Shown: one piece after another, positions 230-6,850 of the stretch
Position numbering within the stretch: position 1 is the stretch's first letter
Layout: every line of letters starts with the position of its first letter
Origin: a virus
Taxonomy: Duplodnaviria; Heunggongvirae; Uroviricota; Caudoviricetes
Length of the DNA: 7,214 bases
Direction: 5' to 3' (one strand)
IMG/VR virus record: IMGVR_UViG_2695420427_000010
Program-made: the position numbers and the translations under genes
Notes under the pieces: generated by a model
The model's database searches: none
What the model saw: the letters and a program-made list of their open reading frames with translations, nothing else
What the model was told of the DNA's origin: nothing

Positions 230-1122
230 AGGAAACGGTAAACAAGGCTGGTAACGCCGTTCAGCGTTCCGGCGATAAAATGACCGGAGAACTGAAAATT
301 GGCACGGTGAATGCGCTGCGAATTTTCAATGATACCTTCGGTCTAATTTTCCGTCGTTCAGAAGATTTTCTTCATTTCATTCCGACGGCTGAAGGACAAG
401 GCGAAAACGGTAATATCGGCCCATTAAGGCCATTCGCTATAAATCTGAGAACAGGTGCTATATCTGTCAGCCACGGGGCCAAAATTAAAGGAGGTCTAGC
501 TATTGGAGCTACTGATAACGCACTGGGTGAAAACTCCATTGTTCTGGGAGATAACGACACCGGATTTAGGCAAGATGGAGATGGTATTATTAGCTTCTAT
601 TCAAATGGTTCGCGCATCGGACATATTGATGAGTTAGGATTACATCTTTATAAAGATATTGAATCTAATGGCAGCAATTTTAGATTAAAAAGTAATTACC
701 GCCACCACATTACATTCGCCAACGAAGACGGAAGAATTCGTATGTTTTTGTGGAAAGATAACGGTGGTGATGGTGTTCATATTAATAACGGTTCAGATGG
801 TGGTGGTGATTTCATTTTTAAAACAGATGGGGGATTTGCGCTGGGAAGTGGTGCGCAAGTTGCGTCTAGTGGCGATATTTATGGTTCAGTGTGGGAAAAC
901 AACTGGTTAAGCACATGGCTGCATAATCATGTCGTTCGGGATATTCGTCTTGGCAGCATTGAATATAAAAACGTATGGCGCGACTACGGCTTTGGCGATG
1001 CGTCAGGTTATGTTTTAACAGCCGCAATTAACAGCAATGCGGATGATATTGTCGACACTGTTGCCAGAAGGCCAATTCAGAAATTGATTGGGGGAATATG
1101 GTACAACGTGGGGAGTGTTTAA
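1..1122 (+). CDS. stf: Side tail fibre protein, 3' portion: end of constant region (1..229) plus variable tip cassette C1 (230..1119). Partial, the reading frame is open from position 1 and the gene continues upstream of the window.
   Basis: Frame 1 is open from nt 1. The first 76 codons match the constant-region segment of the minus-strand stf ORF ([12 protein letters not shown]...AVIEYLGL). The downstream cassette carries tail-fibre-like motifs ([23 protein letters not shown]) and ends with TAA at 1120-1122, 1 nt before the tfa start. Confidence 0.85.
209..234. other. Site B, gix/pix/hix-like 26-bp inversion crossover site (12-bp half-site, 2-bp core, 12-bp half-site) at the stf constant/variable junction
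   Basis: TTATCGAATACC-TC-GGTTTACAGGAA. From memory, the Mu gix site is TTATCCAAAACC-TC-GGTTTACAGGAA; the right half matches exactly and the left half has 2 mismatches. The position at a tail-fibre constant/variable boundary is the classical one. Confidence 0.75.
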
Positions 1123-1123
1123 G

Positions 1124-1651
1124 ATGATGCACCTGAAAAATATTAAGGCCGGGAATCCGAAAACACCGGAACAATACCAGCTAACTAAAAAAGCGGGCGT
1201 GGTATGGCTCTTTTGCGAAGATGGCAAAAACTGGTATGAGGAACAAAAGAATTTTCAGCCAGACACCATAAAAATTGCTTACGATGAGAACAACATCATC
1301 GTTGCTGTCAGTAAAGACGTTTCAACTATTAATCCTGAAGGGCTAAGCATAGTTGAAGTTCCTGATATTACGGCAAATCGTCACGCAGACAATAACGGAA
1401 AATGGATGTTTCTGGATGGTAAAGTAGTAAAGAGGGAATATACAGAACAGGAACTGCAACAACAGGCCGAATCACAAAAGGCCGCATTGCTTTCCGAAGC
1501 TGAATCAGTCATCCAGCCGCTGGAACGCGCTGTCAGGCTGAATATGGCGACGGACGAGGAACGCACACGACTGGAAGCATGGGAACGCTACAGTGTTCTG
1601 GTCAGCCGTGTGGATACGGCAAATCCTGAATGGCCACAAAAGCCTGAATAA
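1124..1651 (+). CDS. tfa: Tail fibre assembly protein (Tfa chaperone) for cassette C1
   Basis: Product begins [21 protein letters not shown], the conserved Tfa N-terminus of lambda Tfa / Mu U type. GGGGAG ribosome-binding site 8 nt upstream. Starts 1 nt after the stf stop. Confidence 0.85.
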
Positions 1652-1656
1652 AAATT

Positions 1657-1676
1657 AAGGCCCGATAGCGGGCCTT
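1657..1676. terminator. Candidate bidirectional intrinsic terminator between the convergent tfa genes
   Basis: Perfect 8-bp stem AAGGCCCG / CGGGCCTT with a 4-nt loop in the 28-bp gap between the Tfa1 stop (1649-1651) and the Tfa2 stop (1680-1682). The minus-strand transcript has a T-rich run after the stem; the plus-strand tail is weaker. Confidence 0.5.
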
Positions 1677-1679
1677 CTC

Positions 1680-2213
1680 TCATTCTGGTTGTTCGGGAAA
1701 CGTTACTGGCAGGCTGGAGGTGTCTGTGGATTCAACCTTCTGCGCATAGAGCATCCACTCGGTTAATTTTTGTTTATTCTCATCGGAAATGATGCCCAGC
1801 TGTAGCTGAGAGTCCCACAGCTGGGTTTTATCCCTGACGAGCTGCAGCAGGCTCTGCTTTTCATTTTCCGCTTGTTGCCTTTGCTCTTCCTCGGTATAAG
1901 TTCGCTTTATCACCGCACCATCTTTGAACATCCAGTTGCCCGAAATATCAGCCCGGCGATTTGCTGTAATATCAGGCAACTCAACGACACTTAAACCTTC
2001 TGGATTAATTGCTGATACATCCTTGTCTATAGCAATAATTATTCCCTCAACTGTGTAAGCCAGTTTTATTGTATCCTCCTGAAAGTTTTTTAATTCCTCA
2101 TGCCAATTTTTTCCATCTTCGGACCATAACCAGATAACATCAAAATTCTTTGTTAGCTGGTATTGTTCAACGGTTTTTGGATTACCTGCGACAATGTTTT
2201 TTAAATGCTGCAT
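1680..2213 (-). CDS. tfa: Tail fibre assembly protein (Tfa chaperone) for cassette C2
   Basis: Product begins [21 protein letters not shown] and is a paralogue of Tfa1 with a divergent C-terminal half. AGGT ribosome-binding site. Convergent with Tfa1. Confidence 0.85.
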
Positions 2214-2215
2214 GA

Positions 2216-3142
2216 TTATACCTGCGATACGTTATACCATGTTCCGTTAATTAACTTTTGTATTGGTCTGAATACTGCCGGATCATCACCATCGACTTCA
2301 CCGATAATACCAAGCCCCGTGATTACATGGCCTGATTTTTCATACATCACGCCTTTCTTCATGGTCTAAACAACTCGTGTGCCAAGTCTGACATCTCTCA
2401 CATAGCGGGAATCAAAGTTACCGTAATCCGAGGGATTAACACGTCCCGTAATATTTATGGTTTTATTACTTTGAATGCTTCCGGAGACAAAGCGCATAAC
2501 ATGGACGTTATTAGCATAAACATCCAGATTACCATCGCCTTTTTGTTTAAAGCCCGTGTCATTATCACCCAATACAATCGAATTACCGCCAAGAGCACTG
2601 GATGTTCCGATACCCAGTGCACCATTCAGTTGACCACCAGATAACGGCAGTGCACCAACATCTCCTGCTGAAGGTTTTCTGGTGGTGTAAAATTCGGACC
2701 AGTCGGCTTCAAAACCATAACCATCACGGGCTGAACGATAAAAAATACCGCCATTTTTATAATTAATCCGAAACTGAGCTGCAGGACAACTTCCTTCTCC
2801 CATATAAAAATGAATAATTAACGTTGATGCACCACTAATAGTTGCGTTATAGGCTCCGCTACTCCAGTTCCATCCAACTGCTTTATCATTCGCAACGGTG
2901 CTTCCTGTTTTCCCTAAGGCAAACGCACCAACATGACTTGCTTTTAATGTGATATCGGAGGAACCATCAAAAGCCACATTGCTTATTTTCCTGGCAGTTT
3001 TTAATTTTGCAGCTGTAGAAGCATTGCCGGATAGTTCACCAGAAAGGCCACCGCTGAATGTTTGTCGATTAGTCCAGGTATTCGCTGTACTGAGTAACGG
3101 TATTTTCTCCCCGCTTGTGCCGAGTTCTCGTAAACCGAGGTT
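2216..3142 (-). pseudogene. Alternative tail-fibre tip cassette C2 with no start codon of its own (would be expressed only when fused at site C), interrupted by a single in-frame amber codon at 2366-2368
   Basis: The frame is open from the codon after the site-C stop (3142) down to TAG at 2366-2368, then continues in the same frame for 49 codons (T, then MKKGVMYEKSGHV...[17 protein letters not shown]) to TAA at 2216-2218. The post-amber tail aligns with the last residues of cassette C1 ([18 protein letters not shown]), and VRDVRLG before the amber aligns with VRDIRLG in C1. Confidence 0.7.
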
Positions 3143-3150
3143 TTAGATAA
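3125..3150. other. Site C, gix/pix-like 26-bp crossover site immediately upstream of the invertase gene (gixR-equivalent position)
   Basis: TTCTCGTAAACC-GA-GGTTTTAGATAA, a near match to the recalled gix sequence TTCCTGTAAACCGAGGTTTTGGATAA. The reading frame through the site is the same as through site B, so recombination gives an in-frame const-C2 fusion. Confidence 0.75.
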
Positions 3151-3204
3151 TGGCGGTTTCTGGCCTGCATGGCATGATTTGTGCTTTTGGACGGGAGATT
3201 CAGC

Positions 3205-3531
3205 GTGCTGATTGGCTATGTAAGGGTATCAACAAATGACCAGAATACAGACCTGCAACGAAACGCTCTTGTTTGTGCAGGATATGAACAAATATTTGAA
3301 GATAAATTAAGCGGAACAAGGACAGGCCGACCTGGATTAAAACGTGCTTTAAAGCGCCTTCAAAAAGGTGACGCACTGGTTGTCTGAAAACTGGACTGAC
3401 TGGGTCACTGTATGCGGCATCTTGTCGTGCTGGTGGTGGAAGCCTAGAAAAAGTATCGGGTGTTGCTGAACCGTGTTGATACATCAACTGCACCTGATAT
3501 TGAGTGGCCTACGAACCCTGTCAGGGAGTAA
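3205..3531 (+). pseudogene. pin: Serine DNA invertase of the Pin/Gin/Hin/Cin family, inactivated: 60 N-terminal codons intact, then multiple stops and frame decay, 3' end missing
   Basis: GTG at 3205 with a GGGAG ribosome-binding site gives MLIGYVRVSTNDQNTDLQRNALVCAGYEQIFEDKLSGTRTGRPGLKRALKRLQKGDALVV, the recalled Pin/Gin N-terminus. TGA at 3385-3387 sits where the family has Trp (VVWKLDRLGRS); further stops follow at 3397-3399, 3445-3447 and 3529-3531. An intact gene of about 185 codons would run to about 3770, which is occupied by the convergent methyltransferase coding sequence. Confidence 0.8.
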
Positions 3532-3585: not shown

Positions 3586-6099
3586 CTATTTTTTCCCTGA
3601 AGCGGAAAACATTACTACAGTACCTTGAACCCTGGTTTTAACATTCTCGAAATGCTCTGAGAGTATATGTGTTAAGCCTTCTTCGGAATCTTTTGTGTTT
3701 GAAAAGATGCCTTTCTGATTGTAAATGCGCATCAGTTTTTGACCGAAGCTATTGTGCACAACTCCATCGCCAAGAATTGTGGCTCCGTATAGAGTTCCAT
3801 CGTCAGTTAAGGCCTGCGCCGCATTGCGTATTACACAGCTTTTTGTAGATATATTTCCAGGCAGGCAGTGAAGAAGGTAAAACATGGAAATGGAATCAAA
3901 TTGACCATGTAACGCCGCGGGATAAGGTTCAAAAACATCATGGCTAATTTTATGTTTAATTTTTGATTCCCCAGCCCTTGTAGATGCCGCGTTCAGGCTA
4001 GCTTCGTTCAAATCCATTAAAGATATCAGACTACTCTCAGGTACGTGAGTAAGGTAAAACCCAGTTCCAACACCAATATCCAGATGGTTGTTACCTAAAT
4101 GTTCCAGAAAGTGTGGAAGAAGGTGTTCCTTTGTAGGACATCCCCATGCAAGCCGATTTGATACTCCCAAAACCCACCAGTCATAAAGCTTTAGGGTAAG
4201 TGGTGTGTAAATTTTAGCCCCATCATCTGTGTTTAGTAAACCGAGGTATTCGATAACGGCAGCAACGGTCGATTTCGCAAGAATATCCCGCCCGACTTTT
4301 GTCAGGGTTGCCAGGCTGGCGACATCATTCCCCGTAAAATACGGAAACTTGCCTGCCGCAGTAGTAAGTCCGGCCAGCGCCGTCAGGGTGGCATCTTTCG
4401 GTTGCTTACCCGCAAGCGCGTTAGTCATGGTGGTCGCAAAATTCGGGTCGTTGCCCAGCGCCGCAGCCAGCTCGTTCAGCGTGTTCAGTGCATCAGGTGA
4501 CGAATCTACAAGGGCGGCAATCGCAGCCATAACGAAAGCCGTGCTTGCGATTTGGGTATTATTCGTTCCCTGTCGCGCAGTTGGTGTTGTTGGCGTTCCG
4601 GTCAGTGCAGGACTATTTAAGGGCGCTTTCTTGTTCGTTTCACCCATTACCGCCTTAACCGCTTTTGGCGTTGCCGCCAGTGACTCGGAAGTGCTGTTGG
4701 TCGCACTGCTGAGCTGTACTATCCCCTTTTTCGTCGTGCTCGCATCCTCCAGCGCCACGGCGGATGCAATATCCTCTGCCCGTTTTGCTGCTGTCTCGGC
4801 GCGCGTTGCCGCGGATTCAGCAGCAACTTTGCTCTGAGATGCAGCCGTCGCACTGCCTGCCGCCTCTGATGCTTTCGTTGTTGCTGTCGTGGCACTACCT
4901 TTCGCTGCTGACGCTTGTCTGGTCGCCTCATCTTTTGAAGCAGACGCAGATGATGCCGATGACGCCGCTGAACTGGCTGACGATGCGGCTGCTGCCTTAG
5001 AGGAAGCAGCATTGTCTGCTGAAGTCTTTGCATTTGTTTCAGAGGTTTTTGCTGCAGAAGCAGACCTCGCTGCTGCAGTGGCTTGCTCAGTGGCTTTGCC
5101 AGCCTTCGTTGTGGCTGTTGAAGCGGATGATGCGGCGCTTTCTGCCGATTTTCCGGCGGCGGTGGCACTGGCTGAGGCCTGCCCGGCACTTGTTGACGCG
5201 GCACTGGCAGATAATGCAGCCGCTGTTTTTGAACCTGCCGCAGCTGAGGCGCTCTGTCCCGCTGCTGTTTCAGAAGACTTAGCGTTCGTCTCGGACGTTT
5301 TTGCCGCCTTCGCGGAATTTCCTGCCGCCGTTGCCGAGGAAGCTGCACTACTGGCACTTGATGATGCATTCGTTTCTGAAGATTTCGCTGCCTCTTTTGA
5401 GGCCGCCGCACCCCGTGCCGAGGTGGCAGCTTCTGACGCCTTCGTGGTCGCTGTGGATGCAGAAGTGGCTGCCGATTTTTGTGATGCTGCGGCATTCGTT
5501 TCTGACGTTTTCGCGGCACTGGCGCTGGTAGCTGCCGCGCTTTTTGATGACTCTGCAGCAGCACTTTTTGCTGCTTCACGGGCCTTTGTCGATGCCGTTC
5601 CTGCGCTGGAAGACGCTGACTGAGCCGACGACGCGGCCTGTCCGGCTGACGTGCTGGCGGCACGTGCTGAGGCTGCAGCATCGGTTGCATGAGTTGCCGC
5701 CTCGCTGGCTGATTTTTTCGCGGCTGCCGTATTCTGTGCAACCGCGGAGGCGTTACGTGACACCTCTTCCACCATCTGCTCAAAGCGGCGCAGTGCCTCC
5801 GGTCGGACATCATCCTCCGTCATGGCACCGAGAAAATCATTCAGCGTACCTGGTCTGGAACCTTCATAGACGGTAATGGTCCCGGCATGTGAAGGCGGAA
5901 AACCTTCAACCAGCAGGGTGACGCTGTACTGACCATGCTCAACATCCATGCTGTAACGTCCGGCTTCATCCGGATTTTCAGAGGCCACCGTGTTCACCAC
6001 CATCGTGCTGCTGGTTCGTCTGGCCTTCAGCACAATGGTGCAGTTCTGTACTGGTTTTCCTGTGCCATCTTTAAGCACGCCAGAAATTTTTACTGTCAT
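3586..6099 (-). CDS. stf: Side tail fibre protein Stf (lambda-like N-terminal and central constant region, 4237..6099) fused in frame at crossover site A to a C-terminal SAM-dependent methyltransferase-like domain
   Basis: 837-codon ORF with a GGTGGA ribosome-binding site. The N-terminus MTVKISGVLKDGTGKPVQNCTI...GFPPSHAGTITVYE is recognisably the lambda Stf N-terminus. A long Ala/Ser/Thr-rich repetitive shaft follows. The constant region ends ...AVIEYLGL at the site, then LNTDDGAKIY... runs into the methyltransferase motifs. Confidence 0.85.
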   Translation of the reverse strand: MTVKISGVLKDGTGKPVQNCTIVLKARRTSSTMVVNTVASENPDEAGRYSMDVEHGQYSVTLLVEGFPPSHAGTITVYEGSRPGTLNDFLGAMTEDDVRPEALRRFEQMVEEVSRNASAVAQNTAAAKKSASEAATHATDAAASARAASTSAGQAASSAQSASSSAGTASTKAREAAKSAAAESSKSAAATSASAAKTSETNAAASQKSAATSASTATTKASEAATSARGAAASKEAAKSSETNASSSASSAASSATAAGNSAKAAKTSETNAKSSETAAGQSASAAAGSKTAAALSASAASTSAGQASASATAAGKSAESAASSASTATTKAGKATEQATAAARSASAAKTSETNAKTSADNAASSKAAAASSASSAASSASSASASKDEATRQASAAKGSATTATTKASEAAGSATAASQSKVAAESAATRAETAAKRAEDIASAVALEDASTTKKGIVQLSSATNSTSESLAATPKAVKAVMGETNKKAPLNSPALTGTPTTPTARQGTNNTQIASTAFVMAAIAALVDSSPDALNTLNELAAALGNDPNFATTMTNALAGKQPKDATLTALAGLTTAAGKFPYFTGNDVASLATLTKVGRDILAKSTVAAVIEYLGLLNTDDGAKIYTPLTLKLYDWWVLGVSNRLAWGCPTKEHLLPHFLEHLGNNHLDIGVGTGFYLTHVPESSLISLMDLNEASLNAASTRAGESKIKHKISHDVFEPYPAALHGQFDSISMFYLLHCLPGNISTKSCVIRNAAQALTDDGTLYGATILGDGVVHNSFGQKLMRIYNQKGIFSNTKDSEEGLTHILSEHFENVKTRVQGTVVMFSASGKK
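3589..4236 (-). other. Class I (Rossmann-fold) SAM-dependent methyltransferase-like domain forming the C-terminus of the stf ORF
   Basis: Motif I HLDIGVGTGFY (about 4050..4080); an acidic post-I residue in LMDLNEASL; DVFEPYP and FDSISMFYLLHCLP resemble motifs II/III. No DPPY/NPPY motif and no PCQ motif, so it does not look like a DNA methyltransferase. No Met between the junction and motif I. Confidence 0.6.
4231..4256. other. Site A, gix/pix-like crossover site at the junction of the stf constant region and the methyltransferase domain
   Basis: GTTTAGTAAACC-GA-GGTATTCGATAA. The constant-side half-site is identical to that of site B (TTATCGAATACC on the coding strand) and the core is the same. 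The variable-side half keeps the inner GTAAACC but differs in the outer 5 positions. Confidence 0.7.
4236..4464. repeat. Inverted repeat copy 2 (3' end of the stf constant region on the minus strand), paired with 1..229
   Basis: See copy 1: 228/229 identity to the reverse complement of 1..229. Confidence 0.9.
4735..5770 (-). repeat. Low-complexity, internally repetitive Ala/Ser/Thr-rich shaft-coding region of stf (approximate bounds)
   Basis: Translation shows reiterated KTSETNA / SASAA / TATTKASEAA units. The GC-rich codon repetition produces long open frames on both strands (track ORFs 4719..5813 minus, 4889..5623 plus and others). Confidence 0.5.
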
Positions 6100-6250: not shown

Positions 6251-6850
6251 TCAGATACGGTATCCGATACCAACAATAAATGCATCCGTTCGCCAGTCAC
6301 CACTACCGGAACCTTCATAAGCAAGGTCAATGGTCACGGATTCGGTCGGGTTAAACTGCACGCCAGCCCCCCACGCCAGAGACGTGTTGCTGTGGCGACC
6401 GTCATCACTTCCGGTCAGCACGTCGTGCGTTTTCCCCTTGTTGTCAGTTACGCGGAGATAATCCCCGGAGAAAGTCGACACACGGCTGTAAGCCACGCCT
6501 GCCATCGCATACGCGCTGAACCATTCATTCACGCGTACAGACGGCCCCGCCATCACGCTGAACCAGCGGTTACGCACGGAATCTTCATGCCAGCGGGTAT
6601 CGCTGTAGTGCGTTTTTTGCTCATCCTCAGCATTGGCATAACTGAAGGACGTAATCAGCCCCAGCGCGTCCGTAAACTCATAACGGTATTTCACGTTAAT
6701 CCCGTTCAGATTATCGCTGCCGGGAGCGTTCGTACGGGCATGAAGATACCCCGCGCTCAGTGTGGACTGATGTTCAGACGCCCATGCAGGCGCACCGGAT
6801 ACGGACAGACAGATGGCTGCGGACAAAATGGCTGCACAAACTTTACGCAT
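6251..6850 (-). CDS. lom: Lom outer-membrane protein (Ail/OmpX/PagC family beta-barrel)
   Basis: 199-codon ORF with a signal-peptide-like N-terminus (MRKVCAAILSAAICLSVSGAPAWA) and a C-terminal aromatic residue. The sequence is recognisably lambda Lom, and its position between J and stf matches lambda. GAGAGG ribosome-binding site. Confidence 0.9.
   Translation of the reverse strand: MRKVCAAILSAAICLSVSGAPAWASEHQSTLSAGYLHARTNAPGSDNLNGINVKYRYEFTDALGLITSFSYANAEDEQKTHYSDTRWHEDSVRNRWFSVMAGPSVRVNEWFSAYAMAGVAYSRVSTFSGDYLRVTDNKGKTHDVLTGSDDGRHSNTSLAWGAGVQFNPTESVTIDLAYEGSGSGDWRTDAFIVGIGYRI

Follow-up and report, generated by a model that had tools for sequence, protein, structure and literature searches.

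A candidate recombinational enhancer in the remnant of a dead invertase gene beside an inverting tail-fibre segment of an Escherichia coli prophage

Tail-fibre cassettes, crossover sites and the dead invertase gene

The window, by which we mean the whole 7214-nt stretch of DNA that was analysed, represents the tail-fibre end of a lambdoid prophage. This prophage is inserted in ompW, adjoining the trp operon, in E. coli of phylogroup B2 (NCTC86, ST131) and in related assemblies. Positions 235–3124 hold an invertible segment, delimited from the open reading frames and from the occurrence of both orientations in relatives. It comprises two C-terminal tail-fibre cassettes and two assembly genes in a head-to-head arrangement. 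On the plus strand, the first cassette extends up to 1122 and is followed by the first assembly gene (1124–1651). On the minus strand lie the second assembly gene (1680–2213) and the second cassette (2216–3120), which is interrupted by a stop. The invertase remnant follows on the plus strand (3205–3448). Beyond the invertase reading frame we found a fragment of a tail-fibre assembly gene and then a SAM methyltransferase gene on the minus strand. The side tail fibre gene (start at 6099), lom (6251–6850) and the end of gene J are likewise encoded on the minus strand.

The stop codon in the second cassette is located at 2363–2365 and divides it into open reading frames 2366–2977 and 2216–2362. 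Thus, the flipped orientation in the lineage of the window would yield a truncated fibre. The counterpart of this cassette is intact in the ST131 strain 4/0, where the product has 941 aa.

Two 26-bp crossover sites border the segment. The gix-type site beside the dead invertase gene is found at 3125–3150 and reads TTATCTAAAACC TC GGTTTACGAGAA on the minus strand, with its centre at 3137/3138. The partner site at 209–234 reads TTATCGAATACC TC GGTTTACAGGAA on the plus strand and marks the junction between the constant and the variable part of the tail fibre. Both sites carry the central TC, are close to the gix site of Mu and are inverted relative to each other. As in a segment of the Gin type (G, C or P), sites 209–234 and 3125–3150 flank alternative tail-fibre C-termini together with their assembly genes. 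The functional invertase gene that adjoins such a segment is missing here, as the resident copy is dead.

The remnant opens with a GTG start at 3205, and homology to invertase genes stops near 3448. Two in-frame stops have replaced sense codons, namely Trp61 (TGA at 3385–3387) and Arg65 (TGA at 3397–3399). The short invertase reading frame therefore runs from the GTG at 3205 to the TGA at 3385–3387, and everything from about codon 82 on is absent. The RefSeq annotation lists the remnant as an incomplete pseudogene. It is also a mosaic. Positions 3125–3395 resemble Mu gin (92–96% identity) and positions 3396–3448 resemble pinE of e14. In the pinE-like part there is near-identity over about 45 nt (TATGCGGCATCTTGTCGTGCTGGTGG), after which the homology ends. 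Comparison of its first 60 codons with Mu gin shows five changes, of which two are synonymous and three missense. One of the affected positions is codon 27 (3283–3285), which is TAT (Tyr) here and Cys in all 70 of the intact invertases examined (70/70). The remnant is thus a dead gin/pin mosaic, in which the seemingly intact 5' end is so only superficially. This 5' stump is the leftover of a 3' rearrangement near 3448.

An enhancer homologue in the first codons of the remnant

A first-pass annotation of the window had proposed that the 5' part of the dead gene retains the Fis-dependent recombinational enhancer of the invertase family. The position of such an element was determined with three anchors: the annotated enhancers of P1 and P7, a real Salmonella hin gene, and 70 distinct intact invertase genes. 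The window was aligned without gaps to Mu gin, to cin of P1 and P7, to pinE of e14, to the ST131 prophage invertase gene and to hin. A literature search retrieved no usable enhancer alignment of gin, cin and pin. The P1 record (AF234172) carries an 'enhancer of Cin-mediated C-segment inversion' at 418–489 of locus L003, with the cin coding sequence starting at 400 of that locus, which places the enhancer at +19..+90. A similar annotation in the P7 record spans +19..+86 of cin. The P1 interval aligned without gaps to positions 3223–3294 of the window.

The enhancer of Hin has been described as a 65-bp element with a Fis site at either end and 47 bp between the site centres; about 100 bp separate hixL from the proximal site, and the spacer includes the motifs ATTTA and TAATG (PMC3798978). 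In the hin gene of S. enterica subsp. diarizonae we located TGTCAACAATTGACC at +26..+40 and GTGCAAATTGTGACC at +74..+88, a distance of 48 bp from centre to centre. Between these sites are the motifs ATTTA and TAATG, and the hixL centre lies 106 bp upstream of the proximal centre. This hin gene thus fits the published description, and its two sites align to 3227–3241 and 3275–3289, so that it serves as an anchor for the enhancer in the window.

The putative proximal Fis site at 3227–3241 (TATCAACAAATGACC, centre 3234) is the same in Mu gin and in e14 pinE. The spacer at 3242–3274 is free of insertions and deletions in comparison with those of gin, cin, pin and hin. The putative distal Fis site at 3275–3289 (GTGCAGGATATGAAC, centre 3282) aligns to GTGCAAATTGTGACC of hin and to GTGCAGGATGTGAAC of Mu. 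With centres 48 bp apart, a spacing that gives the fixed helical phasing of these enhancers, the two sites stand at the ends of an element of about 65 bp, and at 3227–3289 this element occupies the position in the 5' coding region (approximately codons 8–29) that is expected for an enhancer of this family. From the proximal centre it is 96 bp to 3137/3138, where the crossover site is centred. In the alignment no indel separates window and Mu from the gix site through the enhancer, hence the spacing is identical. Over positions 3205–3304 the same alignment contains one differing base. At +2 from the distal centre the G of Mu is replaced by A, which makes this centre richer in A/T and at once converts Cys27 to Tyr. 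A/T-rich Fis cores have been described as favourable (PMC4784862). The ST131 copies show one synonymous difference at 3252, within the spacer.

Both sites were also compared with motif descriptions. The published Fis motif has G/C at −7/+7, an A/T-rich centre and pyrimidine–purine (Y-R) steps at ±3–4 (PMC4784862). The distal site 3275–3289 conforms to it in full, and the proximal site 3227–3241 has both Y-R steps, with T and not G at −7, as in gin, pin and hin. For scoring across the family we used a seven-position degenerate Fis consensus, (G/T)NNYRNNWNNYRNN(C/A). This consensus reportedly goes back to Hubner and Arber 1989. It is matched by chance about once per 128 nt and has 45 matches in the window; the distal site fits all seven of its positions (7/7). 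Because motif matches are common by chance, the case for the enhancer rests on homology and not on the motif. From this homology, the decayed gin/pin-type invertase gene probably has its Fis-dependent recombinational enhancer at 3227–3289, where 48 bp separate the two site centres and the crossover site at 3125–3150 is 96 bp away from the proximal one. The proposal that the dead gene retains the family enhancer is thus upheld as to its presence, while its location has to be moved by about 70 bases upstream.

Conservation was evaluated in the 70 distinct intact invertase genes, which comprise 68 genes from hin-related loci plus those of Mu and P1. The position homologous to the proximal site fits the degenerate consensus in 96% of the 70 invertases, and the position homologous to the distal site in 46%. 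Within the proximal site, the codons for Ser9 and Thr10 have four-fold degenerate third positions, and these are conserved at 0.96 and 0.94. At the other invariant four-fold codons within the first 73 codons the values range from 0.31 to 0.64. Hence there is constraint at the DNA level at the proximal enhancer position, and none at the two 15-mers to which the first-pass annotation had assigned the Fis sites.

These 15-mers, GAAGATAAATTAAGC at 3298–3312 and GTGCTTTAAAGCGCC at 3344–3358, do read as reported. Their centres at 3305 and 3351 are 46 bp apart, and, counted from the GTG start at 3205, they together span +93 to +153, as had been stated. Both also fit the loose Fis pattern on which they were chosen, a fit that is no better than chance. 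The pattern, G followed by 13 nt with at least five A/T among the seven central positions and then C, has 138 matches in the 7214-nt window (19 per kb), with 112 ± 10 per window expected from first-order Markov simulations. Seven matches fall within the invertase remnant alone, and of random 190-nt stretches matched in composition, 35% contain a pair spaced 40–55 bp apart. As the loose pattern is this common by chance, the observation of the two 15-mers carries no evidential weight on its own. The annotation had expected the enhancer roughly 100 to 170 bp into the coding sequence. This is wrong, as the distance in question counts from the crossover site and not from the start codon. Alignment to the known enhancers, which the annotation had named as a check, puts 3298–3358 at invertase codons 32–52, beyond the annotated cin enhancer and the hin sites and outside the position in the gene where the enhancers of this family lie.

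That the enhancer nevertheless consists of these two 15-mers is very improbable. Beyond their G-N13-C form with an A/T-rich centre, the idea can draw on 3298–3312 satisfying six of the seven positions of the degenerate consensus (6/7) and on the presence of both 15-mers in Mu gin, where 3344–3358 has one base altered. Against this stand the codon position, the loose pattern being expected by chance, and the spacing of 46 bp where the invertase family keeps 48 bp free of indels. When the published Fis motif was applied, 3298–3312 showed one of the two Y-R steps and 3344–3358 neither. At the positions homologous to the two 15-mers none of the 70 intact invertase genes (0/70) matches the seven-position consensus, and third codon positions under 3298–3358 are unconstrained in this set, so that synonymous sites vary freely there. 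We therefore regard 3298–3312 and 3344–3358 as ordinary coding sequence, outside the enhancer homologue.

Inversion of the segment in carriers of the dead gene

Relatives of the window were gathered by a look-up of the assembly-gene product, and their copies of the remnant were compared over 440 nt. Locus L007 and loci L011 and L013 have the segment in opposite orientations, and their remnants show no differences over these 440 nt. In L007, the constant part of the tail fibre is joined to one cassette (Ca) and the remnant side to the other (Cb). The two are swapped in L011 and L013. Identity between the crossover sites is limited to a 12-bp core, ACCTCGGTTTAC, outside which the half-sites are distinct (TTATCGAATACC and TTATCTAAAACC). 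Since the outer half-sites differ and the flanks switch at the core, reciprocal exchange occurred within the 12-bp core. Such core-confined exchange is the signature of a serine invertase and not of homologous recombination.

Among 5426 complete E. coli genomes the remnant–Cb junction was present in 377 and the remnant–Ca junction in 153, each at 100% identity, and both occur within ST131. The ST131 isolates 4/0 (urinary) and 4/1-1 (faecal) belong to one Swedish series and have an IS insertion in lom in common. Their flanks are 100.000% identical over 3027 and 6109 bp, and the 3.1-kb segment alone is inverted between them. An O25b:H4 assembly (CP015085, CP015087) contains both orientations, as its chromosome record and an additional 32.7-kb record differ in this respect. 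The segment of about 3 kb thus flips on very short time scales in cells in which the local invertase is dead. This inversion explains the disagreement among ST131 assemblies in this region. The first-pass annotation had supposed that the flanking sites are still competent for recombination by an invertase acting in trans. This is borne out by the two orientations next to the same dead gene, by exchange in the 12-bp core, and by a full-length invertase gene elsewhere in the genome.

The two orientations could in principle stem from RecA-dependent recombination between inverted repeats, or form a polymorphism older than the death of the invertase, with nothing acting in trans today. Partial similarity of the cassettes in some strains, such as NCTC86, where both ends start alike, would lend itself to the former. 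We consider this account very improbable, because identity at the sites amounts to just 12 bp (L007 versus L011 and L013; 4/0 versus 4/1-1) with flanks that switch right outside, which is too short for homologous recombination. The account is further contradicted by the 9.1 kb of 100% identical flanks in 4/0 and 4/1-1, including the same IS insertion in lom, by the presence of both states in one assembly and by a remnant that is identical in either state. Homologous recombination and ancient polymorphism were accordingly rejected as the cause of the two orientations on the grounds of the 12-bp exchange and the identical flanks.

Several of the IS-rich relatives (L006, L008–L010 and L012) have IS elements in place of the tail-fibre constant part and its gix site. 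They keep only the site on the side of the dead invertase gene, and these copies should therefore be locked.

Candidate source of the invertase and proposed role of the remnant

A candidate for the enzyme was found in the same genomes. A full-length invertase of 190 aa, with the catalytic Ser in the motif RVST and with an enhancer-like 5' sequence of its own, is encoded in a P88-like prophage adjoining aroA/serC, about 482 kb from the remnant. The protein is 100% identical in 4/0, 4/1-1, 4/4, EC958, JJ1886 and many other ST131 genomes. It is plausible that this ST131 invertase is the source of enzyme for the orphan switch. The gene lies at 957834–958406 in 4/0 (NZ_CP023849.1) and at 1002379–1002951 in 4/1-1 (NZ_CP023844.1). 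Compared with the sister isolates, the gene in 4/0 is displaced by about 45 kb and reads from the other strand, which hints at a further rearrangement around this prophage.

Gin, Cin, Pin and Hin are interchangeable. Deletions of the Keio type take out nearly the whole coding sequence, and hence an enhancer within it. For the P segment of e14 it has been reported that PinQ of prophage Qin inverts the segment, and that a pinE deletion mutant is locked though pinQ and pinR remain (PMC12529663). In our own reading the pinE deletion removes the enhancer within pinE, so that a locked P segment is what the loss of an enhancer acting in cis predicts. The cited study makes no mention of an enhancer inside pinE, the loss of which would explain its locked mutant.

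On the model for Hin and Gin (PMC3798978), the enhancer would be bound by a Fis dimer at either end. The 26-bp sites 209–234 and 3125–3150 would be occupied by an invertase produced from another place in the genome, and the three loci would assemble as an invertasome on supercoiled DNA. The Fis-bound enhancer would then switch on the invertase tetramer, and the 2.9-kb segment of tail-fibre cassettes would invert. Wild-type enzymes of the Hin/Gin type strictly need the Fis-bound enhancer in cis (PMC3798978). As the enhancer acts in cis only, the 5' stump of the dead gene would keep the orphan switch responsive to a foreign invertase. The simplest reading is that the remnant stump supplies the enhancer for inversion in trans, a reading in which we infer Fis binding, the need for the enhancer and the identity of the invertase.

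Alternatively, the enhancer homologue might be an inert relic, with the segment flipped by an invertase that is independent of Fis or that uses an enhancer elsewhere. The intact ST131 invertase gene does have its own enhancer-like sequence, and enhancers work from many kb off (PMC3798978), which would allow for such a scheme. The sequence in question is about 482 kb distant, far past the kb range reported. This also exceeds one supercoil domain. The strict requirement of wild-type Hin/Gin-type enzymes for the enhancer in cis argues in the same direction, as do the locked e14 segment in the pinE deletion despite PinQ and PinR, and the fact that the local copy has preserved the two sites with unaltered spacing and as far from the crossover site as in the native arrangement. 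We thus hold the inert relic to be unlikely and favour the stump as the enhancer used during inversion.

A separate question is whether the stump has been retained for this function. The first-pass annotation had offered enhancer function as the reason why the 5' part of the gene stays intact. This finds no support in the alignment to Mu, as three missense changes have accumulated, one of them at the invariant Cys within the core of the distal Fis site. Copies of the remnant differ by 0–3 bases among carriers, and with so few differences there is no power to detect selection. One could imagine that the stump is kept by selection as a cis 'socket' that lets any acquired invertase drive the tail-fibre switch of a cryptic prophage. 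The host would in this case profit from the variation, for instance by way of chimeric tail-fibre proteins that block phages, of which StfE2 of e14 is a reported example. We consider selection of this kind quite improbable.

Compared with known systems, the element comes closest to the enhancer (sis) of Mu gin. Over the first 100 nt of the two genes there is a single mismatch, and the enhancers are equally far from the crossover site; the enhancer of Mu was itself placed by way of cin and hin. In contrast to Mu, the gene is dead here (two in-frame TGA codons, an end near 3448), is a gin/pin mosaic, belongs to a lambdoid prophage remnant and depends on an invertase from another locus. The enhancer of Hin occupies the same codon positions with 48 bp from centre to centre and about 100 bp to the nearest crossover site (96 bp here, 106 bp in hin). 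Unlike in hin, the spacer in the window lacks ATTTA and TAATG, and the centre of the distal site reads GGATATG instead of AAATTGT. The switch also acts on tail-fibre cassettes, whereas a flagellin promoter is switched in the hin system. The Cin enhancers of P1 and P7 share the homologous position in the gene (+19..+90). In P1, about 500 bp separate the enhancer from the crossover site, which is found at the 3' end of cin, whereas the site here is upstream of the gene, as in Mu and hin. With the e14 P segment the locus has in common that tail-fibre cassettes of a cryptic prophage are flipped by the invertase of another prophage, and that both orientations are common in genomes (PMC12529663). 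Yet e14 still has an active PinE, while the resident invertase gene is a pseudogene here and the switch is wholly dependent on a foreign enzyme.

The element is thus of a known kind, and it is the orphan setting that is unusual. Being nearly a copy of the Mu gin enhancer, it leaves the knowledge of enhancers themselves unchanged. What the locus suggests is that a tail-fibre switch can go on inverting after the loss of its own recombinase, when the 26-bp sites and the enhancer in cis survive and another prophage supplies the enzyme. For annotation this means that a 60-codon 'recombinase fragment' beside tail-fibre cassettes can mark a live switch.

The window contains one further gix-like site at 4231–4256 on the minus strand, which makes the surroundings of the remnant anomalous in this copy and counts against the enhancer reading. 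Here, an inverted second copy of the end of the tail-fibre constant region meets codon 4 of the SAM methyltransferase gene. The full-length tail fibre is thereby fused in frame to the methyltransferase, giving an 837-aa open reading frame at 3586–6099 on the minus strand; this fusion is not on record. Exact matches to the junction numbered zero in metagenome and viral contigs, and it was absent from the 5426 complete E. coli genomes and from phage records. Among complete E. coli genomes, none covers at least 80% of the window in one place. An origin as an invertase product at a pseudo-site in the methyltransferase gene was considered and ruled out, as GGTTTAC is kept past the crossover dinucleotide and the parental ATGAAAAAAAAC is mismatched. 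With no matching half-site at the parental methyltransferase start, the third site is not a simple invertase product. The window corresponds to 8878–13111 of L007 followed by the reverse complement of 6128–9106 of L007, so that the final 229 bp of the constant part of the tail fibre occur twice and inverted, at 1–229 and 4236–4464. The two copies differ from each other by one base and have in common a private variant relative to L007. The junction may represent a strain-specific inverted duplication or an assembly artefact.
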